The notes under the pieces are model-generated. The model was given only the letters and a program-made list of their open reading frames with translations, was not told the origin of the DNA and made no database searches. From positions 4,402,001 through 4,466,000 of the forward strand of contig CM102284.1 in assembly GCA_046563655.1 (NCBI GenBank): DNA of 64,000 nucleotides. Reading direction: 5' to 3'. The first letter of the stretch is position 1. Each line of letters opens with the position of its first letter. The stretch comes from Yuukianura sp. NJ FZ-2021 (Eukaryota). Below, in pieces: positions 3,701-36,657 of the stretch. The position numbers were made by a program, and so were the translations under genes.

Positions 3701-5311
3701 AAGCTTTCCGTCTTTGGCATCTTTACAAAATCGGGAAGTTCGGATCATTTCTGGGCCCTTGAGTGGAACAAAGGAAAAAAAAATCAGGAACAAATTCGGC
3801 AAAACGGTGCTTCGATTTTTTACTATTAAAATCAAAGTTCGCCGAATCACACATACATAAACGAAACATACGTTTCAGACGTCGTTTTAAACGCCGAGGA
3901 ACAAGACGTACATCTTCTTTGTTGGTTTGAGGTAAATAGGCTACTATTCGAATATTTTGTATCATTGTCCACTTTTTTAGAGCAAAAATGACAGTTTCTC
4001 AACACTTTGCTCTGTTTTACCTTCAGGGAGTGGGTCCAGTATTCATTTTCACAGGTATATACCTAGTAAGTTAAATTGAAATTTAAAAATAGTTGAAAGC
4101 AAGATACCACAGGTGAATTTTTATCAATTCAGCCACGTCCAAAAGTTAGAATACAGATGAATTTTTATCATTTTATGTTTTGAAAAAAAACAAAACATTT
4201 TACAATTTTTCAAATTCTGCATAAATTAGGAAAATACAATTTTTCTCCAAAAGTTAAAAGCTAGAAAGTTTGGAGATATAATGACGTTGAAAAAACAACA
4301 ACGATGTTTTGGAATTTTTGATATTTAGCATAAATTAGGATTATACCTACACAACGTATAAAAGTTCGAGTAGCGTTGAATTTTTATGAATCCAAACATA
4401 ATTTAGATTCGATTCGGATGATCAGTGGTTGCAAATGATGTAGGTAGCCAGATTGTATTAATAAACCTAGCAAAATAATTCTGAAAAATACGGCAACAAC
4501 TAAAAAAGAGAAGATTTACTTAAACAAAGGGTTTTGCGTTTTTAGACAGACATTAGTTCAAGTCAAAAACAGCTTTTGAACAAACGAAATCCTTGGGAAA
4601 ATCATCGTAATTAACTAAATAACTGATCCTAACTAATTGCAATTCCTCGAATAATTACGAAAGTAGTAAACTGGAAAAATTTCATGGGATAACCCCAAGG
4701 TAAATAGAATAGTAATAGGTAAGGTCCTTTACGATTGTTTTTTCTAAAGCTGGTTGTTAGAATTCTTTGACTCCCCGTTCACTCGCAGTGAGGTCAGTTA
4801 CAATGCTGAGCTCAACATTTTCATCATTTTATAGCCAGAGTGAAAATTAGAGCCGTGTAGTTTGACTTATTAATTCGGGTTGTTGGATTTTTCCTCAAGC
4901 CTTACTAATTCACAAGTTAATTTTTAATTAAGTTTTCAACTCTGCTGTGGGAAATCAGAATCATACGTCCGTCATTAAAGGAGAAGGACATAGTGCTGCT
5001 GGCGCAAATAATCTTGTCATCTTCACCAAGCTACTCGTTTTACTTCTCACGGATTATTCTTGACTCGTGATTCTTACGAGCATTTTTTTAAGTTTCATAA
5101 ATGTTTAAGTACTATAAAAAAAAATTCTCGTTCTGTCGAATTTGAAATTACTTACGGGTTCAGTGAAGGCTTGTTCATCTAGTGGGAAAATTGGACGTTT
5201 GCCTTGCGGCCGAGTAATGATGTAGTAGGCTCCAGCAGCCGCCAAACTTCCAGCCACGACAACTATGGCCATGGGAACTCCTCCAGGCACCCATTCCAGA
5301 ACTTCATCCAT
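763..5311 (-). CDS. ACSL: Long-chain fatty acid-CoA ligase (ACSL1/5/6-like), copy A, 14 coding exons
   Basis: Spliced frame from MDEVLEW (ATG 5311) to MYSKLD* (763). N-terminal hydrophobic anchor, AMP-binding [68 protein letters not shown]. No stop or frameshift seen. Confidence 0.93.
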
Positions 5312-5859
5312 TTTGGTCACTACGGAAATATCACAAGAACAAAAAATATTTCAAAATTCAACTGAATTTTAATCGATTAGAAGTCGTTTCTACATGACAG
5401 GCTCAATCCAGCCAAAAATATTTCCAGAACAAACTTATTTATACTTGGTAGGATTGAAATGAAATGAAACCAAGATAGTTTGACCTTTAAAACCCCCCGA
5501 AACCTGAAATGAAGCAAGAGAAAAGATATTCGCGAGCAATGACACAATGCGAACACTTACACACCAGAACGAATACTGCAACTGACAAACCAAAATTCAA
5601 ACTTAAACAACGTTTTATATTCTACTCGTATATAAAAATGTCCGATTAAAAATGCACTACTGCTCGTACAAAGTTATAAAACTTACAATTAGTAAATAGC
5701 ACCGGTTTGTATTGAGCGTCATATCTCGTGTAATTAGGACTTTCCCAGGCGCAAGTCCCATCTGTATCTTTTTTCATCAGTACCATCTATAAAACTGCTT
5801 ACTCTTACTCTCACCATCTATAAATTCAATGCTGGTTTTCAGCAATTTATTTTCAAATG

Positions 5860-7479: not shown

Positions 7480-10400
7480 TCAGTCAAGTTTGGAATACAT
7501 GTCAGCCAACTGTGGCTTGAAATACTCTTTGAGTTGTGGTCGTTTCGATTTGAGTGTGGGCGTCAGAAGGCCATTTTTGACAGAGAATGGATCCGGATGG
7601 AGGTAGATGTCTTTTACCTATGAGTAACACAGGGATTAATTAACTTTTAGTAATTAGTTTCATTCAGTTAGTAAAATTCGGTGTTCTTACTTGTTCGAAT
7701 GATTTAAGTCCTGCTTTCTTTCCATAGAGAATGAGTTCATCAAATATCATAGTTTTGACTCTTTCGTCGTTACAGAGAACGGACAGCGTTCCAACGATTC
7801 CATTGTCCACTGCCCACTCCTTGACTGCTTCCACATCAGGCACAACTATTGCTATGACGCAAGACTTTAGAGATTCACCATACAGGTAGATTTGAGACAC
7901 AAATGGACTTCCGAGGTAAACGTTCTCAATTTTCTCGGGAGCTATGTACTCGCCTTGAGACAACTTGAAGATATGTTTCTTCCGGTCTATGATTTTGAGC
8001 GTTCCGTTCTTCAAAACAAAAGCAAAATTTAAAATTTCCCACAACTCTCCAAAAATCTTGTTTAACTGATTGAAAAGCTTACCGGCAGCCATGTCCCAAT
8101 GTCACCCGTGTGTAAGTATCCATCAGCATCGATGACTTCCTTTGTCCTTTCAGGGTCCTTGAGGTAGCCCTTGAAAATTGTTGTCCCAGTGACACAAATT
8201 TCACCTGAATGCCACAAATGTCAAATTAAAATGCAAAATTTTGAATACGGCCGACCTCCTATGTGAACGGAAAAGTTTGTGACACCTTTCACAACTTTTC
8301 GCAACACAACCTAACCTAATTTTTGTGAAGAATTTTTTTGTGCAGCTCACCTTGCCCTGCTGCTGCAAAGTATTCCATTTCAGGCACATCCACCTAGAGT
8401 TTTGTTAAGATTTAAAATTATTTGCCATCTTCACTGCTTGGAATAGTTTTGATTCTTACGAGTTTAATTTTACAGCAAGCTAAAGGTGGTCCAACGTGAT
8501 CTGGGGTACAGTCCCCTTGAATCGTGAAAGTACATGGCGCAACGCATTCGGTTTGTCCGTACCCTTCCACGACCTAGGAAAATACGGTACGATAAATTTG
8601 CAATTCCGAATAATTTGTTTAAACGTAATCCCACTGTTTTCCAGTATTTTAAAACTTACGACACATCCAAGCGCTGCCCGAATAAAAGTGAGAACATTTC
8701 CACTCAGGGGTGCCTTGAAAGCAAGAATTCGAACTTGGAATTAGGGAATTAACCGTTGAGAAACTTCTGAATCCTAAAAACGACGTGGAAGGGATAACAT
8801 TTTGTTTGCGCAACTTACAGATCCCACAACGAGAAGCCGAAGCCTTCCACCCATTCCTTCTTGAACTTTCCGAAATATCAGCATGTCCCAAATACTATTT
8901 CTGCGCATGATTCCCTTCTGCATCTCTGCAACTTTACTGCTGAGTGCCATGTCCAATAGCTTCTTCTTGATGAATGAGCCGTTCGTAGATGCCATGGCCT
9001 AAGCGCAAGGTCAAATCCATGTTGAGCTCAATATTATCAACTATCTCTATGCAGTAATGCTGACCTTGTCGTATATTCTATTGAGCAATCGTGGAACGGT
9101 CGGTGACACCGTGGGTTTGAGAGCCTTGAAATCCTCTGGTAGTTTCCGGATATCACCTCCGAAGAATCCTACACAGGCACCTTCCATATACATAGCAATC
9201 TAAAGCAAGCAAGAGAATGTTAAAAAACTTTTTTTTAAAAACGAAATTTTGAAAAAATGTTGTTCAAAACAAACCTGACAGTTGTGTTCAAACATGTGAG
9301 CAAGCGGAAGGAACGAGATCAGAACGTCAGTTTTATTTGGACGATGCTCTCCCAACTGGAGACAGACTGCTGACACATTGGCCATTACATTCTCATGGCT
9401 GAGCATGACGCCCTTGGGACTCCCGGTTGTTCCGGACGTATAGCATACAGTACATATGTCGTCAGGCCGCGGAGGCTATTTGAAAAAGAACAGCATTTTT
9501 TGAAATTTTGAAAAGCCTGTCAACACTTCTAAGCATCAGTTTTCTAAGCAAAGTGAAAGTTCGCGATTGCTTCCCTTTCGAAACTTTAATTCCAACCTGT
9601 TCAGGATATTCTGCCAGATGAGCCGCACCAACTTTTTCAACGTCTTCCAGCCGAAGGAGCTCAATTCCTAAGCGAACTGCTCTGTCAGTCGTAAGTGGTT
9701 TGACTTCCTTGATATGAATGATCCGTTTGAGACATGATGGCGGTTTTCCACTTAGCAACATACTAATTTTAGCATCATCCTCACAGACTACCGTGGACAT
9801 CTCAGCTAGAAGATAGAAAAAACTTCGTAATGTAATAGTTTTCAATTTTTGAAAAAGCTTTTTAAGGAAACTTACCTTGCTGAATTATGAATGCACAGGC
9901 TTCTTCTCCCAGCGTGTCATAAAGTGGAACGATGACCATGGAATAACAGTAAAGGCCTTGTTCACACATGACCCATTCTGGACAATTCTTCGTGTAGACT
10001 CCAACGTAGGAGTAGGGCTTAAGACCTGTTCAAATTTAATTTTCGTTTTTGATCAAAACGTTAAACATCACAAAATTCAGTTAAACTGGCAATTTCGCTT
10101 CAATTTTGACAAGGAAATGATGAAAAACATTATGTTTTAAAATGTTTTCATTTTTCGATTTTTCACTATTGAAATTTTGTAGAAATGCTGACCTAAGTGA
10201 ATGAGGCCACACCCAAAGTTTCGAGCTCGAAGCAGCGCTTCATTGTAGTGAAGCCACTGGTAAGGTCGATTCTGATTCTCTCTCCAGCCCAAACACTGTC
10301 CATTATCTAAAAAATTGTCAATCATTATTAAAATTAAACTGCAATTATAACCTCTGTTAATTGAAGTAAATTAAGTTTTAAATTGAAATTTCTCTTACTT

Positions 10401-12649
10401 GACTCACGAGCACCTCTTCGAAAAGCCTCATAAATAGTTTTCGCATCTTCGTACAAAAACCGCAGAAGCTTTCCGTCTTTGGCATCTTTACAAAATCGGG
10501 AAGTTCGGATCATTTCTGGGCCCTTGAGTGGAACAAAAGAGCAAAAGTTTAAAAAAAATCATTTCAAAAGTACCAGGAATTCTGATGTAACATACAAATC
10601 ATCAAAAAGGAAAATTGCGAAACATTGCGTGAGCTTGGCCAAAATTTCGAAAACAACAAAATTGCACAGATTAATTAGGCTACGAAGAGACCTCCGCGAC
10701 GACGCGGCGAACATAATTAGTTATACTGTTCGGGAGTTTCTAAAAAAAAATCTTGGTATTTTAGACTCATGACAATGGAAGGAGGTATGACTAAAATATG
10801 TGGGCAGAATATGAAGGTCACATAACTCAACAGCATTTTCTTTTCAATTTTTTTTGGACAAAATTCAACAAACTAGTTGTTAGTCCAAGTCAAAAAGAGC
10901 TTTTGAACAAAAGAAAACCTTGCAAAAGTCATCGAAATTAACTGATTCCAATTACTCGAATTACTACCAAAGTACATACAAAAGTACTTAATAAATGGGA
11001 AAGTTTTATGGAATCACAGAAGTTTCTTTTAGAAACAACAGATTTTGATAATTTAAAAACAAAATCCAACTTCAGATAAAACTGCAATCAAACTGTGTTA
11101 AATTATGAAAATATTAAATTATAGTATTAAAATTTTAATTACTTTTATAACTTCCGACTGATTTGCTAAACTTATGGGAGCACGAATAGGAACTGGAGGA
11201 GGACTTCCGAACCAACTCATTTTATAAATGTTTTTAACTTTCACTTTAAAGTTTAAGAGCTTTCACATTCACTTTTCTCTCCTTGCTTTTTTTGAACTTG
11301 AAATTTTGAAAATCTAAAGCTTTTTAAAGTTTCCAAAATGTTTTTGCCATCGCTAAATTTTTGAAAATTGTTCAAAAGGCCTGCTTGCGCTGATTGCGGA
11401 ACTAAGAATGAGCCCAATATGTAAAACTAAAAGAGAATTGAAAATTTGTGGATTTGTGTGCCAAATGGGAATCAGTGCCAAAAAGAATTTTTTCGCGAAG
11501 CTACTTCGACAGTCCAAGGGATCCACCTTGTTTTAAAAAGAAAAACAGGAGTTATGCAATTTTGTTCGCACCAGACGGAGGAAGTTCTTCATTTGATGTC
11601 ACTCGTTTAGCGTTTATGTTCTGAGGTTCATATAAAGTGAAGTTCTTATTTGATTTACTCTTTTATGCCTTTAAGCTTAAAAACCGAAGCGAAAAACACT
11701 TTTCTTAAAAAAAAGTTGAACAGCAGTGTTTGGAGTGTTTGGTTAGTGCTTGAAACATATGTTTCGTAATTACGAAAGTATGATGCCATGCACATGACCG
11801 GAGCAGCACGAAATATGCTGGCCGCCATTTCATGCCGCGTGCTTTCGAAATGCCATCACAGTAACAAAAAAATTTTTAATTGTTCTAAAAAAAAGTTGCT
11901 CACTTCAAATTCTTGTGACAAAGGTTTAGTAACTTTCTCTAGGAAAAGAAAATGTCAATCATTTGAAAATGGTTATGACAGGATGTGTCAATTTTGGACA
12001 TAACATGCCACCGGAAGGCCTTAGAAGATTTTCTCACAAGATTTGTTAACTTTGTAAAATAAAGTGTCATTATTGGTTAATTGAGAAAGTAAGAAGCTAA
12101 GACAATGCAAATAAGCTGAAGTCTTGCTAACTAAGAAGTTAATGTTTTAATTAAATTTTCAACTCTGCTGTGGGAAACCCGAATCAGGCGTCATTAATAG
12201 CAAAGGAAAAGGACTAAAAAGTTTCTTTTTTTCTGTTTTGTTTTTAACAAAATTACGAAATTTCTTTTGTTATCTTTCTAATTTCTTTTGCCAATTTGAG
12301 GTGTAATGAAACGCTGCGTGTTAAAGGCAAACCTTGTTTGTACAAAAGTACGAAGTATTGCGCAGGTTTTATTTCCCACGGATTTGTATCAATTCTCACA
12401 AGAATTTTCAGTTTTCATGAATTTTTGTTAGTAATAACTTGAAAAATATTCTAGTTTCGTCGAAATTTTAACTTCCAATTTGAAATTACTTACGGGTTCA
12501 TTGAAAGCTTGTTCATCTAATGGGAAAATGGGAGGTTTGCCTTGCGGTCGGGTACTGATGTAGTAGGCTCCAGCAGCCGCCAAACTTCCAGCCATAACAA
12601 CCGCGGCCATGGGAACTCCTCCAGGCACCCATTCCAGAACTTCATCCAT
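7480..12649 (-). CDS. ACSL: Long-chain fatty acid-CoA ligase (ACSL1/5/6-like), copy B, 14 coding exons
   Basis: Same exon structure and motifs as copy A ([24 protein letters not shown]); ATG 12649, TGA 7480. Confidence 0.93.
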
Positions 12650-15600
12650 CTTGGTCACTACGGAAATATCACAAGAACAAAAAATATTTCAAAATGCAAC
12701 TGAATTTTAATCGATTAGACTAGCCGTTTCTACATGACAGGCTCAACATGTGCACAATCCAGCCAGAACAAACTTATTTACTTGGTAGGATTGAAATGAA
12801 ATGAAACCAAGATAGTTTGACCTTTAGCACCCCCAAAATCTGAAATGAAGCAAGAAAAAAGATATTCGGTGTGCTAGCGTGGTGTGAATAGCAGTCCAAG
12901 GCTAGGGCACGAGGACATGACTTGGATAAAAGTAGACTAAATCTTGGCGTCCATATTATTGTTTACTTTACATTACATATGATGACGAATCATGTTAAAA
13001 GATGATTTCGACTTTAACTTGGCACCGATTAAAACTCAACACAAAATCTTCCATACATTGCTGCTACAAACAGTAAAGTTATTTAGTAATTCGTGTCAGC
13101 AAAAAGTTAACTGCAGCAAACTTTGAAAATTAGAGTCCAACTTACACGAAAGTTTAGTTTGGAAAATCTAAAATGAATACAATTTTTTAAATAGTTTGTT
13201 TACAACTCTGAGTTGAGAAGTTCTTATGTAGGTTAGGTTGACTTTTCAAAATTTTCAAAATTTTAATTTAAGAGCAGCTCACCGCTGAGGCTGGACGGAT
13301 GAACACTGTCGTCAACGCCGTGCTGCAGCAGTGACATCTATGTTTCTGGAGAAGTTGGGGAACAGAAATAAGGAAGTGACCAACTAAGCTTTTCAGTAGA
13401 AGACTATAAGTCACTGATTACTTTAGTAGTTTCAAAGAACTGTTTTCCTATTGTCTCAATTGACGATAAATTGTGGGCAATGTGGCCACTGACACATCAG
13501 AATGAATACTACGACTGACAAATGAAAATTCAAACTGAACAACGTGTGCCATAGACAGATTGTACACGTATACAAAAATGCCCGATGCAAAATACATGCT
13601 CGTACAACGTTATAAAACTTACTATTTAGTAAGTAGCACCGGTTTGCATTGAGCGTCATATCTCATGTGGTTGGACTTTCCCAGACGCAAGTCCAATCTA
13701 TTTCTAAATCAACATTTTCCATGAGTAGCATCTATAAAACTGTGTTACTCGGTCCACTTGCTGTATCAACAGCGTCACTACTACTGAATTACTGATGACT
13801 TGCCAAAACCGCAATACACCAACCGATTGATTTTTTGACGAATTAAGTTTCACGTAAACTGAGTTTTACTTAGAAGCAGAATCAGATTGAGGCCAAAACG
13901 AGCCTCAAATTAATATGTGAGTAGATTGGCAATTTTTTATGATTCAGTTCGAACTCAATTTCTACACTAAAAATTCCATGTCAGTTTCCCAATTTTTTGA
14001 CCTGCAAAGTTAAGTTGCGCCGTAAAATGGAAATACCAATGATGCTAATTAGCGTAACGCTGGCTAACTTAATGGATTTTTCCTTCTTCGGAAATTGGCA
14101 ATGTCTTATGATGCGGGATAACCGACCATGATAGGTAAAACATGAGGAACTAAAAAACTAAATTTCGAAATATCAAAAAGTCCAGTGCCAAAATTCACTG
14201 AAATTTTTTTTTGTGAAATTCTGGAAATAGCACAAAACCTCGTGTTCAAAGGACGTCAGCAACTATAGGAGTAAGCGTCAACCGAGTGAAAGTTATGTGT
14301 GCAGATGAAATGGCTAAGTTGAGACTAGCGATGCACGCAATTTTTGTTTGTGTTTAAGTACTAAATAGTAGGCAATGCCAAATGTCAACACTAAAAGTCA
14401 AAAACTGTCATAATTGTCAATTTAAAGGAATCATGGAAGGTTTTAGATCTAATCTAAATGGAAGCTCAAATGAGGAAATGACCTTTGCCCTTTAGTACTA
14501 TTATGATAGAAGATACAAAGCAGTAAATATTACATAACCTTCGAAAGTGGATGTTTCTTTTACAGCAAAATCATATAGAAATCGATATCATACACCCATA
14601 GAAATATGCACGCTGGAATATTGGATACTCAATTTCATCTGAATATCCAATATTTTAAATGTCAAGTTACCAAAAATAACCATTTTGAATTCGATTGCTC
14701 AGCTTTTACTTTCTATTATAAGAAGTAAAAATTAAACTTAGAAAGTTAAGCGTAGTCAAAACATCAAAAGTTTTGGATTTTGGTTCTCTTATTAAATAAT
14801 TTTGGAAATTTCAACGTGGTCATCCAGCAATGCTTGGTTATGGCACTGACATGCCGATATTTTGAACTGTAGTTAATGAATGTAGTTAACTAAAGTTACT
14901 GTTTTAAAATAAATATGACTTACCGGAAGTATGGAACTTGTAAGTAAATTTTAAAAAGTGAGATCAAAGGTCAACCTTAAAACAGTTTGACCTATTGGCA
15001 AGATTACTATAGATAATCACCGTTCCGTTCACTGTAATTATGTGCACAATACAGTGTCAATGCGGTGCCGTGTCAAACGGTGTGACGGTAGTCCAAAGTA
15101 AACATTTCCAGTGAAGCCTCGGCTTCAGTAGCACTTAAATGTCGATTAGCCCAAGCCAACAATCAAATTAACTTTAAACACTGTGATAAAACACAACGCT
15201 TTTAGCTTTCGCCAATTCAGAACATTCGTGAGATTCGGAATGGTCATAAAGGAGTTGAATTTGACTAAAAAGTTTGACTTGGTGACTCCGTTAAAACAAA
15301 ATAATAAATTAACCTAAGTATTAAACAACTAAAAGTAAAAGTTAATGCAAAATTAACATTGATTTGGGTTAGTTTTGTTATTAAATACTCGAAAGATTAC
15401 AGATGTACTTAGTAAACAGAAGAGAGGTGTTAAGTGCTAAAATGTTAGGCAACGTGCCGTAGGATTTAAATCTCAAATTCCTCCCGGAAACTGACAGATT
15501 ATACAACCGAAACCTCCCACTTGAGACACAACTCAAATTTCAACCTTATGCAAAACATACACTAGATGACACGAATTACTTCAAAATTACTATCGAATTA

Positions 15601-17115: not shown

Positions 17116-19372
17116 ATGGCTTCGTATGTAGGAGTGTTGTTAAATGCTGCATTATTGAGCATTTCTACGTTAATTCTGGAGGATTACATGATTCACCAGA
17201 ATCTGAAAAATAAGCTTCCAGAATCAGGTGGCGAGTCCTACGACTACATCGTTATTGGAGGAGGTAAATCAAATGCTCAGAAAAAAAAGTTAAAATTAGC
17301 ACAAATTCTTGAAAAGAAAGTTGGATTAATGTGATTACAACTTAGGCACGGCTGGATCAGTGGTTGCTGGTCGACTCGCTGAAAACGGGCGCTTCAAAAT
17401 CCTTGTCTTGGAAGAAGGCGACGTACAACAAGTTACCAACGACATTCCAGCGATGGAAGCTCTGAATGTCTTCCAGCCCACAACACAGTTCAATGTTCAT
17501 ATGATAGTTCCACAGCAGCAAGCCATGCTTGGGTTTCCGAATAACCAAATAAATGTCGTTACCTCAAAAGTTCTTGGCGGTAATGCTGCAATGTTTTGAA
17601 TTTTCAAATCAAATTCTATCAACATTATAACTTTTTGGTTTAAAATTTTAGATTTAATTTGGGATTTGGTTTAAAAATAATGTTGGAACTTTGAATTTCT
17701 AGGTGGATCTACAATGAATGGAATGATGTTTAACCGCGGCGGTTCACAGGACTATGATGGCTGGGCGACTGACTACGGCATTAAAGGATGGTCGTTTGAG
17801 GATGTGCTGCCATTTTTTAGAAAAATGGAAAATCAAACAGATCCAGACTTAATGCGGGACACAGTTTACCATGGGACGAGTGGCCCAATGACCTTGACAA
17901 CTCCAGACATTGGCCAAACTACTGCTCCTTACCGACTCATGTCCGATTCTCTAATTAACGGAGCACAGGAACTGGGTTACTTTCCCACGGACATAAACGG
18001 ACCGAATCAAGTCGGAACAACTAGGATCCAACGTAACGTGCGGAATGGAAAACGACTAACAACTGCAACGGCATACTTGGAATCACAACAGCACAACAGA
18101 AATCTCGTCGTTTTAACCGGCGCACGCGCAAATAAAATTGTCTTCAACGGTAAACAGGCTATTGGAGTCGAGTATCAGCACAAAGGCAGTGACAGAATTG
18201 CCAAGGTCAAATCCAATGGAGAAATCATCGTGTCTGCTGGAGCGCTTAACTCTCCAAAACTCCTCCTACTTTCCGGAGTTGGGCCGCAGAATGACCTTGA
18301 AGAGCTTGGAATTCCAGTAGTCGCTGATCTTCCGGTTGGTCATAACTTGCAAGACCATCCACGCGTAGGCGGCGTAGACTTCGTTGTCAACACTACCATT
18401 TTTTCGCATTGGGAAGATCTACTTACAGTGAGAAACTTGGAACTTTTTTATGTCAACGGCACTGGACCACTAGCGTCTCAGTTCTACTTGCATCAAGCAG
18501 CAGCAATAAATTTCCAAACAAGAGTTCCAAGAGAGGGCGCCACTTTTGGTCCAGCGGATATGCTGATTATTCCGGGACTTCTTCCACCCGGCTTACAGCT
18601 CTACACCGTACTGGAACCGTATCTCAAAACAGAAATTATGGAAAAATACTTTGGACCTTACATTAATCAACCCATGATAAATTTATTTACTTCACTCAAC
18701 TACGTCCGAAGTCGAGGACAAGTTAAGTTGAGGTCAAGGAACCCAAATGACCCACCACTGGTTGATCCAAAGTACTTGACTCATCCAGCAGACGTGGCTC
18801 GACTAATAGATTCATACAAGTTTTCCATGCAACTGGTCACGACAGAAGCGTTTCGGAAAATTGGAGCCTCGGTTTTTGCTTATCCACTGCCAGGATGTGA
18901 GCGGCTTTTCAATTTCAGGAATCCAGCAGACCAGTCGGATGCTTACATTGAATGTAAAATTAGGCATTTGTGTGCCAGTGAATTGCATTTTTGTGGATCA
19001 TGTAAGATGGGGTCACCAAATGACCGTAGTGCTGTGGTTGACCCTAGGCTGAGAGTACTTGGTGGAATCAAGGGCCTCAGAGTAGCTGATGCATCGATTA
19101 CTCCATTTGCACCTACCGGTATTTCAAGCTTTCAAAATTCTGAAACGACTTTTTACAAAATCTTTAGACCGAAGAAAAAACTTTCTCTGGAAATTTTGAA
19201 ATTTGATGCAAAATTTAAACTTGGTTTCTGTTACACAGGAAACACAATGGCCCCGACAATTATGATTGGAGAGAAAGCAGCAGCGATGATTCTGGAAGAT
19301 CGTGGCCAAACACAGACAGTACTTCCAACATTTCCAAGTATTTTCCAAGGTTTTAATTTTTGGTTTAAATGA
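17116..19372 (+). CDS. GMC oxidoreductase (glucose dehydrogenase-like), ~643 aa
   Basis: Exons 17116-17263, 17346-17579, 17703-19118, 19239-19372. YDYIVIGGGTAGSVVAGRLAE (FAD binding), LGGGSTMNGMMFNRG, SAGALNSPKLLLLSGVG, VGHNLQDH, catalytic His (HFCGSCKMG) and Asn (GNTMAP). Confidence 0.93.
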
Positions 19373-19435: not shown

Positions 19436-20554
19436 CTATAGGAATCTGATTTTCATAGGGTCGATAAAATGATCGGTATTATATAAGGTTCGATTTTTTT
19501 TCCAAATCTGCTTATCTTTTTTCCAAATTTTCTTCATCTTTTTTCTAACCAATTTTTCCAACATCTTGGGAGTGCCCGTGTCAAAGTCGACTAGTCTATC
19601 TACCGTGTCAATCTTGAAAACATTCGTTCTAATTTCAGTAATGGTTGAATTTGTTAAAAAGTGGTAAACTCCGCCCTGTTCTTCCGCTTGAGTCTGTTCT
19701 GCGTCCAAACACGGTACAGCTCCGAGTCCATGCGCATGAACTAAAAGCGAACTATTGCCAATGGGGTCATTAATGGTAACATACAAACATCGTTGGAGCT
19801 GGGCTACAAGTGCCGGATCTTCAACCGTGCTGTAATTGGCGGCACATCCAAAAATGAGTGCTTCCATATTTGCAATTTTAAATGGTGGTTGGTCGTAGTA
19901 GCCTCCGTCTTCTATTGTTTCATTGTAAATTGGTGCTTTGGATACAGCAATGCCCTCCATCATGGCAAATTTGACGAGACCATAGTAACAGAATGGATTT
20001 GTGTCCATGGAGTTATAGACGTTAGTGAAAAAGTCAATCAGAGTGTAGGAGTCGTCGGACGGAGACTGTGATTGGTAGGTGGCGACACCATCACCAGCAT
20101 CTCCGTCGACGGCAAAAATGGCAAATGGTGATCTGAACTGTTGACCTCGAACGACCTTGTAGTAGTCTTCACTTGAATTGTCAGTAGAGCGGACATGGGC
20201 AAGACCATTGGCAAAGAATACTTCACCGGAGGCTTCGAGTACACCGACTGTCGCAGCTCCCAAACCTACGTACCCCGTGGCATCTATGAATGTTTCTTCT
20301 GTTTCTGGCGGAACTTGACCTTCCAGAACTACTCGGACGTCACCGTGGATGTAAACTACGCCGCCGCGTTTCTCATTTGGTACGTACGAATACCCCGGCA
20401 ATGTTGGTAAACTTGGAAAATCGGTTTCGTTGTAGCAGTACTGAGCTGTATCGTCATTTTGTGCCGAAACTGAGCCAAGTTCAATTGCGCAAATTAACAG
20501 AGCCAATGCAAGTATTGAGCCAAAACTAATCGAAGCGTTTAGCGAATGGCTCAT
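19436..20554 (-). CDS. Intronless secreted protein (372 aa) with alpha-acetolactate decarboxylase-like (AlsD/BudA) motif series
   Basis: Single ORF from MSHSLNAS; signal peptide (ILALALLICAIELGSVSA-Q); GYVGLG..SGEVFFANG..RST, RSPFAIF, QPPFKIANMEALIFGC, HAH and GGVYH in the same order as AlsD motifs. ORF is secure; family call is by eye. Confidence 0.7.
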   Translation of the reverse strand: MSHSLNASISFGSILALALLICAIELGSVSAQNDDTAQYCYNETDFPSLPTLPGYSYVPNEKRGGVVYIHGDVRVVLEGQVPPETEETFIDATGYVGLGAATVGVLEASGEVFFANGLAHVRSTDNSSEDYYKVVRGQQFRSPFAIFAVDGDAGDGVATYQSQSPSDDSYTLIDFFTNVYNSMDTNPFCYYGLVKFAMMEGIAVSKAPIYNETIEDGGYYDQPPFKIANMEALIFGCAANYSTVEDPALVAQLQRCLYVTINDPIGNSSLLVHAHGLGAVPCLDAEQTQAEEQGGVYHFLTNSTITEIRTNVFKIDTVDRLVDFDTGTPKMLEKLVRKKMKKIWKKDKQIWKKNRTLYNTDHFIDPMKIRFL

Positions 20555-20904
20555 TTTGGAAAATCCCGTTCTGTCAATTGTTTTGGAAAACTGAAAAATT
20601 AATAAATGCTTTGGTACGCTTTCACTTGTGTGTCTCAAAAGCAGTCAATTTTGAGAAAAATGTTTGTGTAGCAGGTGATTACTGTCAAATCAATTACTGT
20701 TCGATAGCAATTGCACAAATGAAGTTGCAGTTTTAAACGGATTTTGTATCTTATCTGGGTGTCCATAATTCTGTGAAAGATTAAGTTTAGCAATGCTTTT
20801 GCAGAACTATGACGGAATTCTTCTAAAATATCAAAATCAGTGACAAAAATTCGTACTAAACTGACAAAGGGTATGATTTAGTTAGAAAAAGAATTGGGTT
20901 ATCT

Positions 20905-21080
20905 CTTATTATGATTATTATTATGATTGTTTATATGAATTATGACTATAGTATTATTATGATTATAGTATATTATTATAGTAAAATACCAAAAATATTA
21001 TGATCATATTATAATTAATATAAAACTTTAATTATCAATTATATAATTAATATAATAATATAATCTAAAATTTATAGATA
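20905..21080. repeat. AT-rich low-complexity tract (degenerate TAT/ATA repeats)
   Basis: ttattatgattattattatgatt...ataattaatataataata visible directly. Confidence 0.75.
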
Positions 21081-21540
21081 TTACTTTTCCTTGTAGAAAA
21101 CTGTAGACTAAATGTATGAGGGAGTAGGGGCGTGGTTTTAATATTTTTTGCTTGAGATAAAGTTAAAATGTAGACAACAATCTTGTTACTTTAAATTTTG
21201 TTAGGAAGTTTGAGCTGTTTCATGGTCATTGCAATTGAAATAAATTGAGCACTTGACATTAATTGTTTCAAATTTTGTTCAAAATCTGTTTTAAACTGAC
21301 CTTGAATTGAGAGGAGTGTTTTTGCCGATTCAAAATTTCTAGACAAGACTCACGCACCGAAACCAAACACACCCTGCAAAAAATATACAAAAAATGGCAA
21401 ATTAAACTTAATTTATATCGCGTCTAAATTCATTTTGGCATGCAACAAACCTTCCCAGTTTCAAATTTTAGTTGAAGCGGTGTAGACGTAACAGAAGCAG
21501 AATTGCAATAACATTAAAAACCGTTTTTTGAAACTAAAAA

Positions 21541-23001
21541 ATGGTTCAAGTAAAATTTCAAACGCTTTTGGTATTGGTTTTATCCATATTTTGTTTACGC
21601 CAAGCTGTGTCCACCACACAGCATGCAAATCGGTCTCACCCAATCAAATTGTCCGAATTGGAAGCTTACATTGAAGAAATGGATAAAACCGATGGATGGA
21701 CAGCAGAATTTGAAAGTCTCCCGCCACCACAGAGGCAGTTGAAGGCATGGACGGAGGCAGCTCGAAAGGAAAATGTGGGGAAACACCGCTACCCGCCGCC
21801 AGACGATAACCTTTTGACCTACGACGAAACTAGAGTCATCCTAACTCGGAATCCGAACGAGCACTATTCGGACTTCATCAATGCAAACTGGGTTGATGGA
21901 GTACTGGAGACTAGGAGATACATTGGCACCCAGTGTCCAATGGCTTCTACTATTGCCGACTTTTACCGAATGGTAAGTGGTTTACTTAATTTTAATTAGT
22001 TCTAACTAATTCTTACATTTTGTTTTACATTTTAATCATATATTAATAAATTAACTATGTCTAAATGGTTGATACTTTAAAAAATATTTTTGAGAATTTT
22101 TTTTCCACTAATTTCCACTAAAATTCCACTAATTTCGAAAATTCATTTTGAAAAGGTTTGGCAGTACAATATCCATCAAGTCGTCATGCTTGCAAATCCG
22201 CACGACATTGAAAAGGTCAGACTCAATGCTAACTTTAAACGGTAATTTTAGTTCGGGCATGCCACTATTGAGGGATTTAGGTTAGGTTATAGCAACGTTA
22301 AAGGTCAAAGTTCACCATTGCCTTAAAAAAGCTGTCTATTTTCAAAAAATTTATTTAGAAAAAGTGCGAAAAATATTTTCCTGACGGAACTGCTACATAC
22401 GGTGAAATAGAAATTGTGCTCCAACGGCACTACGACCTCGGCGACGTCATTGTTCGGATTTATGCGCTGAAGAAGGTATGACCTTTGACCTAAACGTTAC
22501 CAAGTAATGTTAATTCGCGTTACTGAAAACATATTGTAGGGAGCAATCACTCGTGTCTTTGTTCACAACCACTTTGTCTCATGGCCAGACATGGGCGTGC
22601 CCAGCGATCCCAAGAAACTCCTCAACTTGATTCGTCAGTACCGGAGCTCTGACACATACACACGCGCATGGCCACTGCTCGTCCACTGCTCGGCAGGAGT
22701 TGGTCGCACCGGAACATTTCTACTGACAGACGCTATTTTTGAACAGGCCTTGACCCATGACTCGCTGGACTTCCTCAAGCATCTCTGGCACATTCGAAAT
22801 CAACGAATTTCATTGGTGGAGAAATCGGAGCAGTATGCTCTAGCACATCGCGTCGTTCTGCAAGCTTACAAGGAAGGGCTGTTTGACCCCTCCAAAAACC
22901 CATGGCAGGTCAACCCCAACCTATTGAGCCACGGAAGTTCAATGACCTTTGGCTCCCTCAGTCTCTTGCTAACAGCTATGGTTACACTGATTTCCTATTA
23001 A
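21541..23001 (+). CDS. Classical protein tyrosine phosphatase, single domain, with N-terminal signal peptide and hydrophobic C-terminus (~356 aa)
   Basis: Exons 21541-21972, 22156-22215, 22359-22475, 22540-23001 (all phase 0). KHRY, DETRV, DFINANWV, YIGTQCP, DFYRMVW, VVML, KCEKYFP, WPDMGVP, VHCSAGVGRTG, IRNQR, EQY. Confidence 0.92.
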
Positions 23002-24140
23002 AACTTATTTCCTATGCAACTGCTGACATAATCTAGCATTAATCTAACAATAAATGGCGTCTGGTGTAGAATTCCCGCTTTGTTTTAAAAAACAAATCAG
23101 TATTAAAGTTCACGGATAACATATGGAAATTCCAAAATTGTCACCGAAGTGTCAGATTCAAAAAACTGAAAATTTGAAATAAAAAAGCTGACTTTAATTT
23201 TGAAAAGACTAAAAACGTCATGTGTATGTCTGGATGGGGAATGATGACGAGTTAGGTTGTTGGGCATTTACTTGAGCTAAAAGTTTCAAAACGGAAACTT
23301 AAAACTCATTTAATTTTGAAAATTAACAAAATGAGTGATTCCGTCACCATCTATTTCTAAACAATTTTAAATAGCTTTATGTTTCTCACGGTTCTCAAGA
23401 AAATGTGAAAGCTTAACTGTAATTATGAATGATGAAGATGAAACTAATGACGAACTGGATGATTCACTGCATCGGGTACTTTTTCCAGGAAGTTGAAAAG
23501 CGGTAAACACGACAGAAATGCAATTTCGACCTTGGACCTGCCAAATTAAAACGATGGACTTTTTAATTCATTTAAGCGCTGACCTTCAAAATCTGAAAAG
23601 ATTTCTATCAATTGCAACTTTTTGGACAGGTAAATGAATGAAATGAGATTAAAACTCTGATCAAAAACACGAAACTGGAGTGGAAGGGGATGAATTAAAA
23701 ATTGCAAAAATAGAAAAAAATTGTTAAAGTAAACAAAATGGAGTAACCGTATTCGTCACGCCAATTTTTTCAGCCATTTTGAAACATCATAGTTCTGTTT
23801 CCTGTAATTTTTGAAGTGGTGACCACCCACCAACCCTTAAGTGAGTTGTGCTAATTTTGCTATTCCCAGAATTTGCGAATCCTTCCCTCTAATCTCGTCT
23901 GTCACCATTTCGATAACAGAGTTGCAATTATTGACGCGAAGGCATAAAATAAGCTCCTCAGCATCATAACGAAGGATGCGATCTTCAGAAGATCTTTTTC
24001 AAACGAAATTAGAATTTTCTCAAGCCTTTGCCTTTAGTTTAAAATTGTCAGCTAAACAATCCATTTTTAACGAATCAACCCTCCTAACTGTCACACAGGC
24101 AGAACATTTAAATTTTAACCCTGAAAACCATTTAACCAAA

Positions 24141-26084
24141 ATGGATTTTGAAATTTATTTGGTATTAATTTTTAGTGTTTGCTCGATTGTCGCATTTTGG
24201 TTGAACAACAGGAAAAAGCGAATGTCAATTCTAGAACGGTGTGGCATTCCGGGCCCAAAACCGAATTTGTTTACAGGGAATTTGGTTCAATACGAATCCA
24301 TGGCCAACGTTTTGTGGGATTCATATCTCATTCAAACGTGAGTTCCAAAATTCTGAATTTCAAAATCCTGAGTTTGAAATTTGCAAGTTGCAAACAATTT
24401 GTTTTTCAAGTTCAACTGTGAGAACGGAGCTCTGCTGTTCTTTTTCTAAATCTTCTGTGTAGAGCTGCGTTGAATTTTCAAAATCTCAATTTCTGAATCG
24501 AGCTCGGCTGAGTTTTTGATTTGTCTGAATCTCACACGGAGCTATTATCTGCTGAATTTTTTTAATTCTTAAATTTAAAATTCAAATTTATTTGCAAAAT
24601 TTCTTTGGTTTGAACTAGCTACGGCAAAATAGTTGGGTACTACTTGGGCACCAAACCGGTCGTTCTTGTTGCCGATCCGAAGTTACTTAAGAAGATTCAG
24701 CGCTCAGATGCTGACAAGTTTTTGGAACGTCCGCGTCGTGTCCCAGGCGGAATCAATCCAGATCCACATCGGGCTTTAATGCTCGGCAACGTTCCAGTTC
24801 CAAAATGGATTCAACTGCGCAAAACCTTGGCTCCAAGTTTCAATCCAATCAACCTCAAGGCCATGACCTCTGACATTTCTACTCTGGTTGACCGGATGCT
24901 CCTATGCATTAACACTGACGAATTGGATTTCTTTAGTTTGTTTCAGCGGTTGACGCTTGACATTATTGGTAAAACTGGTTTCGGAATTGACTCAAATATT
25001 TTGGAAAATCCGAATGATCCACTGCTAGCTGCAGTTGCAGCAGAATTTTTAAAATCTACAAACTCCCACTTGGTTCGTCTCTACTTATGTCTCCCGGAAT
25101 TGTCATTTCTGCTTCATCCGATTCGGATTTGGTGGGAACGATTGCGCACTTTGGTCAATTGGTCTTCTTCTGCACTTTGGGATCAGGGAAGATTTGCATT
25201 GATGAACAGAAATCTCAATGAAAGCAGAGCTGACTTGCTCCAGTCGCTGATTTCTGTTGACCCACCTTTGACCTGTGATCAAATCGTAGCCAATAGCGTT
25301 CTGTTCTTTGAGGCTGCACATGAAACGTTGTCCAGTGGCTTAGCATTTATGGTTCATTTGCTTGTACATCATCAAGATGTGCAGGAAAAGTTACGAGAGG
25401 AAGTCAGTCACCTGGAATCGCTGGATTTCGACAGTCTTAAACAAATGCATGAGACGGAGAAAGTCATCAAGGAATCGCTGCGGCTGTTCCCGCCACAAAC
25501 GACATTCATTGGACGGTAGTTTTTTCAAAAACGAAAGTTTTTGATTTTTTGAAATTTCTATACAACAAAATGTTTAAATCAACTTTTGTTAAATAATCAA
25601 TTTGGTGTAACTGTATACTTAGATCTCCTTCGGTTGACTATGCAGTTACGGATGAAACCGGTGAAGTTGTTTCAATCATTCCAAAAGGAACACACGTTCA
25701 AGTGGCATTGTTTCAAATTCAGCGTAGCGCAGAAGCATGGGAAAATCCGGAACAATTTGACCCGGATCGATTTGACAATCGAATGTCTCCAGATGATTCG
25801 TGGCAACCATTTGGAGTAGGTAGACGTGACTGCATTGGCAAAGGTCCGTTTTTATATAAAATTTACTGCAATACGTTATAAGTTACTCAATTTTCGCCAA
25901 TTCTCCGTACCTAGGATTTGCAAATGTGGTGATGAAAGTCGTGCTGGCTAAACTTCTTCGAGAATTTCAACTTGACGTGGGAGAAAAGACGGAAGATGAA
26001 GGAAGTATCCAAATTCATTTTAAAACTGCCACCATGACTCCAAAAAACGGCAGTTGGGCCAAGGTCACGCGGCTTCATCAGTGA
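24141..26084 (+). CDS. Cytochrome P450, probably CYP3 clan (~494 aa)
   Basis: Exons 24141-24337, 24619-25515, 25623-25843, 25915-26084. N-terminal anchor, GIPGPKP hinge, WIQLR, I-helix AAHET, ESLR, FDPDRF, heme motif FGVGRRDCIG. Confidence 0.93.
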
Positions 26085-27103: not shown

Positions 27104-28634
27104 ATGACGACAGCTTGGCTTGGTTTCTTGTTCGTAGCTGCTTTGATCAACGCAAGCGCAGCATCAATAGTTCCATCAATAGTTCCACCTCATGATGATC
27201 TGACGTCTACCAAATCACTGGAAGCTGTACACTTCGAAACGTTTCGGGGCGAAGAAGCGAATCTGAGCGAAGTGCATTTCTATTTACACACAAAGTAAGA
27301 GATTCCTGTTTTTGAGAAATTGGACAAAATTTGCTTCAATCTTCAAAAATTCAAAGAATCCAAATTATTTTGTAACTCTGATGCTTTTTAGTCAAAATCC
27401 AGTGGAAGCGGATGAACTATTTTTGGGTAATAGAGAGGCGTTACAGAATTCGCACTTTCATATTGGCGGTCCACTGTGGGTTTTGGTCCATGGATTTGGA
27501 GGTGGCATTGGAGGTACTTTTCCTTACGAAACTGGAATTGACCTCCTTGGAACCAATGAAATCGGAAATGTCATTCTGCTCGACTGGTCAACACTATCCG
27601 AGGGCCCCAACTACTTCAAGGCAGTTGACAACGTTAGACACAATACTCCACTTTCTCATTTGACCTCAATTGACCTTTGGCTTCAAATTTTTTGAATTTC
27701 AAATTTTCTTTCAGGGCTATGCAGTGTCGAATTATACTGCCGAATTTCTTCAATTTTTGGTCCAAGAACAAGTGGTGACCTCAGCTGAAATTCATATAAT
27801 CGGATTCAGTCTCGGAGGTCAAGTTGTTGGAATTCTTGGGAAACGATTTGAGTGGCTAACTGGGGAGAAAGTTGCTAGAATAACTGGTAAGTGTAACATT
27901 AAAGGTCAAAGGTCATACAGGTCAAGGTCAAAGGCTACTAAAAGCGAGGTCAATGTTGATTGTTGTTTCCTATCGAATTTTCCAGGATTGGATCCAGCTT
28001 GGCCATTGTTTTACCTGGAATCGGACGATGACAAGATCACTGCCGACGACGCTGTGTTTGTAGACGTTATTCACACAAACGGTGGAACCCAGGGGGTGGT
28101 AAGGTCAAAGGTCATTCCTATGTTAACTATTTCTACTAATGCCGTTCTCATTGCAGATTCAACCTGCAGGTCATGTTGATTTTTATCCAAATGGGGGTAT
28201 GCTTTTTTGATTGCAAAACCTATGTTTGAAAATAGCATATAAATCCATTTGAACATGTTCGAACAATAATTATTCATGTTTGAAGGAAAAAAACAGCCAG
28301 GTTGCGGCATTGACATTACCGGTTCCTGTTCGCATGCTCGTGCAGTTCACTACTTCAAGGAAACCATCACGAGCTCCAATGTATTTTGTGGCTGCAAATG
28401 CGAAAGCTGGGAGGAATTTGAGGCTGGAAATTGCGCATGCTCCGAAACTGCAAACCTGGGATACTTTGTTGACCAAACGTAAGTGACTGTATTGACGTCA
28501 GTGTTAGTTAATCTAATAAGTTGAGAACTTGAATGATTTTGTTTTTGTAACTTTGAAGGGCTACGGACAATCATTATCTGACTACATTCGAGGAAAGTCC
28601 GTATGCTCAAGGGCCCTGTATCACTCCAGCATAA
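27104..28634 (+). CDS. Secreted pancreatic-lipase-family lipase / phospholipase A1-like, 7 coding exons
   Basis: Signal peptide, VHGF, NVILLDW, GFSLG nucleophile, RITGLDPA, VDVIHT, GHVDFYPNGG, QPGC, CSHARA; S-D-H triad intact; TAA 28632-28634. Confidence 0.92.

Positions 28635-29324: not shown

Positions 29325-36657
<7,333 letters not shown>

Follow-up and report, generated by a model that had tools for sequence, protein, structure and literature searches.

In a 64,000-nucleotide stretch of the genome of Yuukianura sp. NJ FZ-2021 (GenBank assembly GCA_046563655.1, contig CM102284.1, positions 4,402,001 to 4,466,000; the whole of it is called here the window, and positions are counted from its first letter), a gene on the forward strand at 21541-23001 encodes a predicted protein tyrosine phosphatase (PTP) with one classical catalytic domain, a signal-like segment at its beginning and a hydrophobic tail at its end. 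To our knowledge, classical PTP domains have been treated as strictly cytosolic. On balance we think that this protein probably derives from the first catalytic domain (D1) of a receptor-type PTP (RPTP) and that its topology has been inverted, the domain facing the lumen of the secretory pathway or the cell surface.

The window DNA is eukaryotic in type (about 37% G+C, short GT-AG introns). The two long open reading frames (ORFs) singled out in the initial annotation were located at 21541-21999 and 22591-23001, and joining at GT-AG sites gives four exons, all in phase 0, of 1071 nucleotides in total and coding for 356 amino acids with no internal stop. The architecture announced in that annotation (a signal-like start, an NRS sequon, a complete PTP domain, no internal membrane segment and a hydrophobic tail) was recovered in every element, as follows.

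21535-21537, forward strand: in-frame TAA one codon before the ATG, read from the DNA; the stop-to-stop ORF begins at 21538
21541-21972, forward strand: exon 1 (residues 1-144), with the signal-like segment, the sequon, the RPTP-type lead-in and the first third of the PTP domain; donor GTAAGT
21541-21612, forward strand: predicted signal peptide (residues 1-24, rule-based), with Lys5, an apolar core of 12-14 residues and A-V-S before the proposed cleavage point
21628-21636, forward strand: N-glycosylation sequon NRS (residues 30-32), just past the predicted cleavage site
21637-21681, forward strand: lead-in HPIKLSELEAYIEEM, counterpart of the juxtamembrane (wedge) region of receptor PTPs by alignment to D1 structures
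21781-21807, forward strand: phosphotyrosine (pTyr)-recognition loop KHRYPPPDD (residues 81-89), by gapped alignment to solved RPTPs
21973-22155, forward strand: intron 1 (183 nucleotides, GT..AG), its junction gapless against homologues
22156-22215, forward strand: exon 2 (residues 145-164)
22216-22358, forward strand: intron 2 (143 nucleotides, GT..AG)
22359-22475, forward strand: exon 3 (residues 165-203), with KKCEKYFP at residues 165-172
22476-22539, forward strand: intron 3 (64 nucleotides, GT..AG)
22540-23001, forward strand: exon 4 (residues 204-356 and the stop), with the WPD loop, the catalytic loop, the Q-loop and the C-terminal tail
22582-22590, forward strand: WPD (residues 218-220) with the general acid Asp220, aligned to RPTP epsilon and alpha
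22684-22713, forward strand: catalytic loop HCSAGVGRTG (residues 252-261; Cys253, Arg259), by alignment to PDB chains
22816-22836, forward strand: Q-loop VEKSEQY (residues 296-302), the first Gln replaced by Glu297 and the second kept, by alignment to RPTP epsilon and alpha
22933-22998, forward strand: C-terminal signal-like tail (residues 335-356), with G-S-S, a short spacer and 14 apolar residues up to the stop, by our own omega/spacer/tail rule
23049-23054, forward strand: AATAAA polyadenylation-type hexamer, 48 nucleotides past the stop codon, read from the DNA

Intron-free homologous proteins align gaplessly across all three exon junctions, and the ATG lies in the context AAAAATGG. The region upstream (20600-21540) holds only short ORFs of 29-59 amino acids, and tblastn of the full signal-less paralogues, N-termini included, placed no alternative 5' exon within it. 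The mRNA-like contigs (L001-L003) that lie behind the homologous proteins P0001-P0003 (P-numbers denote protein relatives) each have a stop in frame ahead of the Met of the signal, and one of them, L002, finishes with a poly(A) stretch. In L004, a genomic exon-1 homologue obtained by a scan of metagenome contigs, a stop stands five codons upstream of the Met, and exon 1 ends at the same point as in the window gene. Because a TAA directly precedes the ATG, and because the homologues' mRNA-like contigs have stops upstream, hidden 5' exons are unlikely. This removes most of the force from the refutation foreseen in the initial annotation, namely that exons further upstream make the hydrophobic stretch the membrane segment of a receptor. 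At the other end, tblastn of P0001-P0004 against the window returned only the four exons and chance-level matches, and thus no hidden 3' exon. Weak matches of paralogues at about 3.2 kb and 9.9 kb belong to genes for AMP-binding enzymes (described below) and not to PTPs.

The Pfam family Y_phosphatase (PF00102) is matched by exon 1 with 54.4 bits (profile positions 8-61) and by exon 4 with 96.1 bits (profile positions 132-233), the cut-off being 20.9 bits; exons 2 and 3, too short to be scored alone, are covered by the gapless alignment to homologues. Both the catalytic loop HCX5R(S/T) and the WPD loop are present, and the motifs DFINAN and TQCP stand at residues 111-116 and 130-133, respectively. 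No family member that covers the positions of the Cys, the Arg, the WPD Asp and the pTyr-loop Tyr has lost any of them, which speaks for a functional enzyme rather than a pseudo-phosphatase. An AlphaFold2 model, computed from the family alignment for the member P0209 and not for the window protein, reached a mean predicted local distance difference test (pLDDT) of 80.2 and a predicted template modelling score (pTM) of 0.81, with the signal and the tail predicted as helices and the inserted pTyr loop at low confidence. With this model as query, the top Foldseek matches were PTP10D, PTPRT and the D1 of PTP-epsilon (target TM 0.87-0.88), and for P0209 the ESM Atlas returned only generic PTP clusters, below 0.9.

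The best solved relatives of the window domain are the D1 domains of RPTP epsilon, alpha, LAR and sigma (exon 4 against RPTP epsilon 2jjd, E 1.3e-40), with about 35-37% identity to vertebrate RPTP epsilon and alpha among the matches listed. From residues 29-39 onward the window protein aligns to the D1 chains of RPTP sigma, LAR, epsilon and alpha, starting at their residues 2-11, and the counterpart of the lead-in corresponds to residues 2-20 of these crystal constructs. The likeness of the lead-in to the juxtamembrane or wedge region, proposed in the initial annotation from the letters alone, is therefore borne out by the very beginnings of the D1 constructs, and the receptor derivation that it proposed for the catalytic domain also holds, the best solved relatives and the nearest named relatives both being receptor PTPs. 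The eight best-scoring outgroup proteins were looked up, together with a ninth (P0063) taken from the list of proteins with Glu in the Q-loop; five of the eight have an organism name, and all five are chelicerate (Halotydeus destructor, Dermatophagoides farinae, Ixodes scapularis, Haemaphysalis longicornis and Centruroides vittatus). Another relative, which has Glu in the Q-loop, comes from Ornithodoros turicata. On these PTP outgroups alone, the window sequence would be placed in an arachnid, probably a mite. In the Halotydeus protein, a signal and a single extracellular module are followed by a membrane segment of 27 residues, a lead-in very like that of the window protein, and then D1 and D2. 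The window protein has neither an ectodomain nor an internal membrane segment nor a second PTP domain, and we infer that the family arose from an arachnid-type receptor of this kind by loss of these three parts. Taken together, the lead-in, the structural relatives and the chelicerate RPTP outgroups lead us to derive the domain from a receptor-PTP D1, an origin that appears well supported in silico.

Several positions around the active site differ from the textbook pattern. In the pTyr loop, Tyr84 is kept, the motif Asn is replaced by His and four residues (PPPD) are inserted after the Tyr; the insertion occurs in all family members covering the region and the His in most of them, whereas Asn is found in 245 of the 270 K-x-RY matches in the other proteins of the PTP search (P0005-P0266, seven family members among them). 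In the same set the first Q-loop position is Glu in 19 of 429 intact catalytic domains (five of the 19 being family members) and Gln in 365. The 19 include seven outgroup records, of receptor or tandem PTP type, that have the Glu in their WPD-containing D1. As it is shared with related D1 domains, the Glu is inherited and has no link to export, and it probably still permits catalysis; it was accordingly rejected as a signature of export, being present in signal-less members and in outgroup receptor D1 domains. The change of TQGP to TQCP was tried as a strict export marker as well and fared no better: all six signal-bearing members share it with two that have no signal (P0231 and P0037).

The signal and glycosylphosphatidylinositol (GPI) calls were made with simple rules of our own and with control proteins, the GPI rule being unbenchmarked; hydrophobic segments were taken as 19-residue windows with hydropathy above 1.2. 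Such windows occur at residues 1-27 and 335-356 only, and none lies in residues 28-334, so that there is no internal membrane segment. Of the family members with an N-terminus, six in ten (the window protein, L004, P0001, P0002, P0003 and P0209) have the n-h-c design of a signal peptide, with a Lys within the first five residues, a core of 10-14 residues and small residues at -3 and -1. The threshold applied to N-terminal hydrophobicity (10-residue window) was reached by none of 112 cytosolic SRPK control proteins, and by 574 of 20000 random 30-mers with the composition of the domain itself (2.9%). Between the window gene and L004, the mature part of exon 1 has a nonsynonymous divergence (pN) of 0.169 against a synonymous divergence (pS) of 0.842, which is purifying selection; in the signal region pN rises to 0.495 while the hydrophobic pattern is kept, as would be the usual behaviour of a signal peptide. 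The sequon that follows is kept too, as NR[ST], the aligned position in L004 reading NRT. The signal-like N-terminus thus appears to be a trait of the family and not an accident, and a conserved N-terminus of export type seems to us well supported in silico.

The family itself was delimited by several searches. A word-indexed search with exon 1 gave four proteins among 522 candidates, and a near-length search gave, among 6671 candidates, 351 proteins at E <=1e-40, 120 of these 351 being listed. An exhaustive profile search of 1.84 billion representatives gave 16137 PTPs at E <=0.001, the score dropping from 815 to 429 bits after the query cluster. A family hidden Markov model (HMM) run over 267 PTP-domain proteins separated eleven of them (the window product, P0001-P0004, P0006, P0154, P0155, P0209, P0231 and P0037) at 325-775 bits from the next best at 267 bits, and L004 brings the family to twelve members. 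Their sources are JGI, Logan and MetaClust only, and none has a name in NCBI or UniRef. The family forms a clade with 100/100 support, on a long stem, in a maximum-likelihood tree that also includes 20 D1 domains as outgroup. The second protein after the query cluster in the profile search, P0005 (Ixodes scapularis KAM7286676.1), contains long internal repeats, with the same N-terminal and D1 segments present twice, a pattern suggestive of a tandem-domain PTP duplicated in assembly or annotation.

The C-termini of the family are diverse. In the window protein, G-S-S stands at residues 335-337 and the mean hydropathy from omega+8 to the end is 1.94; our omega/spacer/tail rule, unbenchmarked as it is, was passed by one of 385 background proteins, and the hydrophobicity of the last 14 residues was matched by 36 of 20000 random 14-mers (0.18%). 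P0209, which belongs to another subclade, independently ends in N-S-G, a spacer and an apolar tail. The combination of signal and tail, for which the initial annotation had suggested looking in related sequences, is therefore repeated in one distant member. These two hydrophobic tails lie in different subclades; four members stop after the domain, L004 is cut by the end of its contig, and five relatives (P0001-P0004 and P0006) end in N/T-rich low-complexity tails closing in Cys-Ala/Gly-Ala. These soluble-type tails (also read from loci L001-L003) contain a conserved ..IVIRIT/SKEPR.. before the final Cys-Ala-Ala or Cys-Gly-Ala. Lipidation of CaaX type was considered for these ends and set aside, the Cys being third and not fourth from the end and the proteins carrying signals.

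The mechanism that we favour can be put as follows. A short cleavable signal peptide would send the whole catalytic domain into the endoplasmic reticulum (ER) lumen, and the C-terminal tail of small residues, spacer and apolar stretch would act as a GPI-attachment signal or, failing that, as a membrane anchor without cytosolic tail; such a type-I anchor is an equally lumenal alternative to GPI on the features read here. A catalytically equipped PTP domain (Cys253, Arg259, Asp220 and Tyr84) would then be held on the outside of the cell surface or on the lumen side of the membrane in secretory compartments. It would there act on phosphotyrosine, or on other aryl phosphates, carried by substrates in the lumen or outside the cell and hydrolyse them, and sister genes would provide soluble secreted versions with N/T-rich tails as well as signal-less ones. 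Signal cleavage, the lumenal or outside orientation, GPI addition, enzyme activity away from the cytosol and the substrates are all predictions from sequence. A broader claim, that these proteins are the first animal family of dedicated extracellular or lumenal classical PTPs, a receptor D1 inverted by means of a signal peptide, with GPI-tethered and soluble forms and acting as erasers of extracellular phosphotyrosine, is one that we put forward as a tentative and somewhat doubtful extension.

A number of observations weigh against a lumenal or surface-facing phosphatase. The signal-like segment is absent in four of the ten members with an N-terminus (P0154, P0155, P0231 and P0037), whose proteins stop right after the domain; these N-termini were taken from protein records only, and P0004 and P0006, truncated at the N-terminus, were left uncounted. 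Signal-bearing and signal-less members are interleaved in the tree, with at least three changes of state, and monophyly of the signal-bearing ones is rejected at a cost of 64.5 log-likelihood units (approximately unbiased test, p 7.4e-5, for a group named after the tree had been seen). It follows that the signal was gained or lost repeatedly and that the domain is presumably cytosolic in some members. The tail of P0209 has low hydrophobicity (0.78), with an Arg at four residues from its end. The predicted mature window protein has three Cys, an odd number, and Cys-based phosphatases are easily oxidised outside the cytosol. Finally, the Glu in the Q-loop and the insertion in the pTyr loop, modelled at pLDDT <50 in P0209, mean that activity or specificity may differ from those of textbook PTPs.

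The alternative that survives best is that of a doubly anchored cytosolic phosphatase, held by an uncleaved reverse signal anchor at its N-terminus and by a tail anchor of PTP1B style at its C-terminus, with the domain tethered to the ER or plasma membrane on the cytosolic side, where the ancestral receptor PTPs also have it. We regard it as unlikely, even though it has real points in its favour: the domain comes from a cytosolic receptor-PTP D1 and has kept the juxtamembrane lead-in, paralogues without signal exist and are presumably cytosolic, truncated records of RPTP alpha/epsilon type that start directly at the membrane segment were found in the databases, and the charge difference across the hydrophobic segment of the window protein is about zero. 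An active site built on Cys is, moreover, suited to a reducing compartment. The geometry of the N-terminus speaks for a different topology. In six control records of RPTP alpha/epsilon type with a usable membrane segment, this segment has 20-28 apolar residues and is followed by a net charge of +2 to +5 in the next ten residues, and it lies about 44 residues ahead of the D1 lead-in (in the two of the six records where our pattern located the lead-in). The apolar cores of the family are short (10-14 residues; 12-14 in the window protein and 10-13 in its homologues), with positive charge before and not after them, the Lys preceding the core in all six signal-bearing members and a positive cluster after it being absent; they lie only 7-14 residues ahead of the lead-in, with small residues at -3 and -1. 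We think that a cleaved signal, its N-terminus in the cytosol and the rest translocated, is to be favoured over a reverse signal anchor because the core is short, the charge precedes it and the lead-in is close. Two further points go the same way: relatives of the soluble type, which share this N-terminus, carry N/T-rich tails and no second anchor, and the window protein and L004 both keep a sequon immediately past the segment. If the doubly anchored topology were nevertheless the true one, the gene would simply encode a cytosolic PTP tethered to a membrane, in an arthropod lineage that is poorly sampled.

A second alternative accepts a lumenal or surface location and gives the protein a changed job, either as a slow or trapping enzyme (a phosphotyrosine binder) or as one acting on a phosphate ester that is not a protein. 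It builds on the Glu at the first Q-loop position, since in PTP1B the Gln found there takes part in hydrolysing the phospho-enzyme, and on the pTyr loop, with its four inserted residues, its His in place of Asn and its low-confidence model. To us this appears quite unlikely, given that the Cys, Arg, WPD Asp and pTyr-loop Tyr are intact in every member covering them, that the Glu is an inheritance (it occurs in the WPD-containing D1 of seven related records), and that pN/pS is low.

It is also conceivable, as a third alternative, that the family consists of exported effectors, secreted in saliva, gut fluid or some other secretion and acting on phosphotyrosine signalling inside the cells of prey, host or microbe. 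The soluble-tailed relatives would fit, five in number, with a signal also present in the three whose N-terminus is intact, and so would the confinement of the family to a lineage that is unsampled and has mites, ticks and a scorpion as its closest relatives with a name. Tyrosine phosphatases that are secreted and act in host cells are well known in bacteria, and passages of PMC9864599 predict such enzymes in insect-pathogenic fungi. A tail for retention in the membrane, as on the window protein and P0209, is however ill-suited to a delivered effector, and a literature search of mite saliva studies found, among the matches listed, no secreted classical PTP; we hold this role to be distinctly improbable.

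As for an artefact (a mis-joined model, a pseudogene or chance hydrophobic ends), a gene model built on DNA alone and the failure to find an annotated orthologue bearing a name would invite the suspicion, but it is largely refuted and hardly credible in view of a frame open across four exons with canonical splice sites and gapless junctions, purifying selection against L004, expressed homologues with poly(A), and end features that recur in an independent subclade with chance rates of 2.9% and 0.18%.

We return to the proposed inverted, lumenal or surface-facing phosphatase and compare it with known systems. It shares the PTP fold and the catalytic motifs with the D1 domains of chelicerate RPTPs (Halotydeus destructor KAI1295769.1, Dermatophagoides farinae KAH9517852.1, tick and scorpion), the best-scoring proteins outside the family, and with vertebrate RPTP epsilon and alpha (PDB 2JJD, 6D4D, 1YFO and 6UZT). 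The lead-in before the domain (SHP.P/K..EL..YIE...) is also shared, and the Glu of the Q-loop is common with the chelicerate D1 domains. The window protein differs from the RPTPs in having no ectodomain, internal membrane segment or D2, in a lead-in placed within about 10 residues of the signal, in the four residues added after the Tyr of KNRY with Asn changed to His, in TQCP for TQGP, in its hydrophobic C-terminal tail and, as predicted, in the opposite topology of the catalytic domain. PTP1B (PTPN1) likewise has one classical PTP domain and, at its C-terminus, a hydrophobic segment (exon 4 against PTP1B chains, E about 1e-18), but it lacks an N-terminal signal and faces the cytosol, whereas the window protein has a signal-like N-terminus and a tail of GPI style with small residues and spacer; the conserved signal-like segment sets it apart from the tail-anchored class of PTP1B type. 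GPI-anchored ecto-phosphatases such as tissue-nonspecific alkaline phosphatase have the same layout as that predicted here, with signal peptide, catalytic domain and C-terminal anchor signal, and they too act on phosphate esters outside cells. Alkaline phosphatase, TRAP and PTEN are the extracellular phosphatases named in passages of PMC4427915; alkaline phosphatase, TRAP and secreted PTEN are of unrelated fold or chemistry (metallo-, histidine or lipid phosphatases) and not Cys-based, pTyr-specific PTPs. Reviews of microbial ecto-phosphatases (PMC3095255 and PMC3958851) describe ecto-phosphotyrosine phosphatase of protozoa and fungi; these are surface activities measured on intact cells and known biochemically. 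VLK/PKDCC, presented in the abstracts of PMC10017657 and PMC9016620 as the only known secreted or extracellular tyrosine kinase, offers a parallel in logic, a signalling enzyme of cytosolic type sent into the secretory pathway by a signal peptide, but it is a kinase and not a phosphatase.

In full-text searches, and in passages of single papers, that covered literature outside subscription journals, no classical PTP domain from an animal was described as combining a signal peptide with a GPI-anchored or secreted topology, and we found no dedicated Cys-based eraser of extracellular phosphotyrosine; the phrase "GPI-anchored protein tyrosine phosphatase" had no occurrence in the full-text search. 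If the proposed topology is correct, this conserved and expressed family would supply a concrete and clonable candidate for the missing activity that erases phosphotyrosine outside cells, with a kinase of VLK/PKDCC type as its natural writer. It would also allow one to test whether a phosphatase based on a thiol works in an oxidising compartment, and would show clearly how the topology of a signalling domain has been inverted in evolution.

The neighbouring genes that were identified are ordinary metazoan genes, and no functional link between them and the PTP gene was seen. One neighbour, on the reverse strand at 19436-20554 and divergent to the PTP gene, is a single-exon ORF of 372 amino acids. 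Its N-terminus resembles a signal peptide, NxS/T sequons are numerous and the C-terminus is rich in Lys; its product matched no Pfam family and had no usable match in the ESM Atlas. In the gap of about 900 nucleotides between the two genes, AT-rich degenerate repeats of attatgattat type lie at 20900-21080. An Rfam scan of the window gave no match at gathering scores. Further genes were placed at 17681-19372, 23976-25519, 27664-28179 and 33664-35702 on the forward strand and at 29745-31491 and 55434-56021 on the reverse strand. The types found among the neighbours are, by Pfam, a GMC oxidoreductase, a cytochrome P450, a lipase of pancreatic type, a lipid-transfer protein of Vitellogenin_N type and an RTP801-like protein, and, by its homologues, a kinase of SRPK type, whose best named matches are scattered over Metazoa at 46-67% identity, too wide a spread to decide on a taxon. 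At about 950-5350 and 7660-12690 on the reverse strand, finally, the window contains two tandem and nearly identical multi-exon copies of a gene for an AMP-binding enzyme (similar to acyl-CoA synthetases), with matching exon ORFs about 6.7-7.3 kb apart. PF00501 is found in both copies, and PF13193 gave a weak match, slightly short of its cut-off (E 1.3e-4), in the single copy that was scanned for it.

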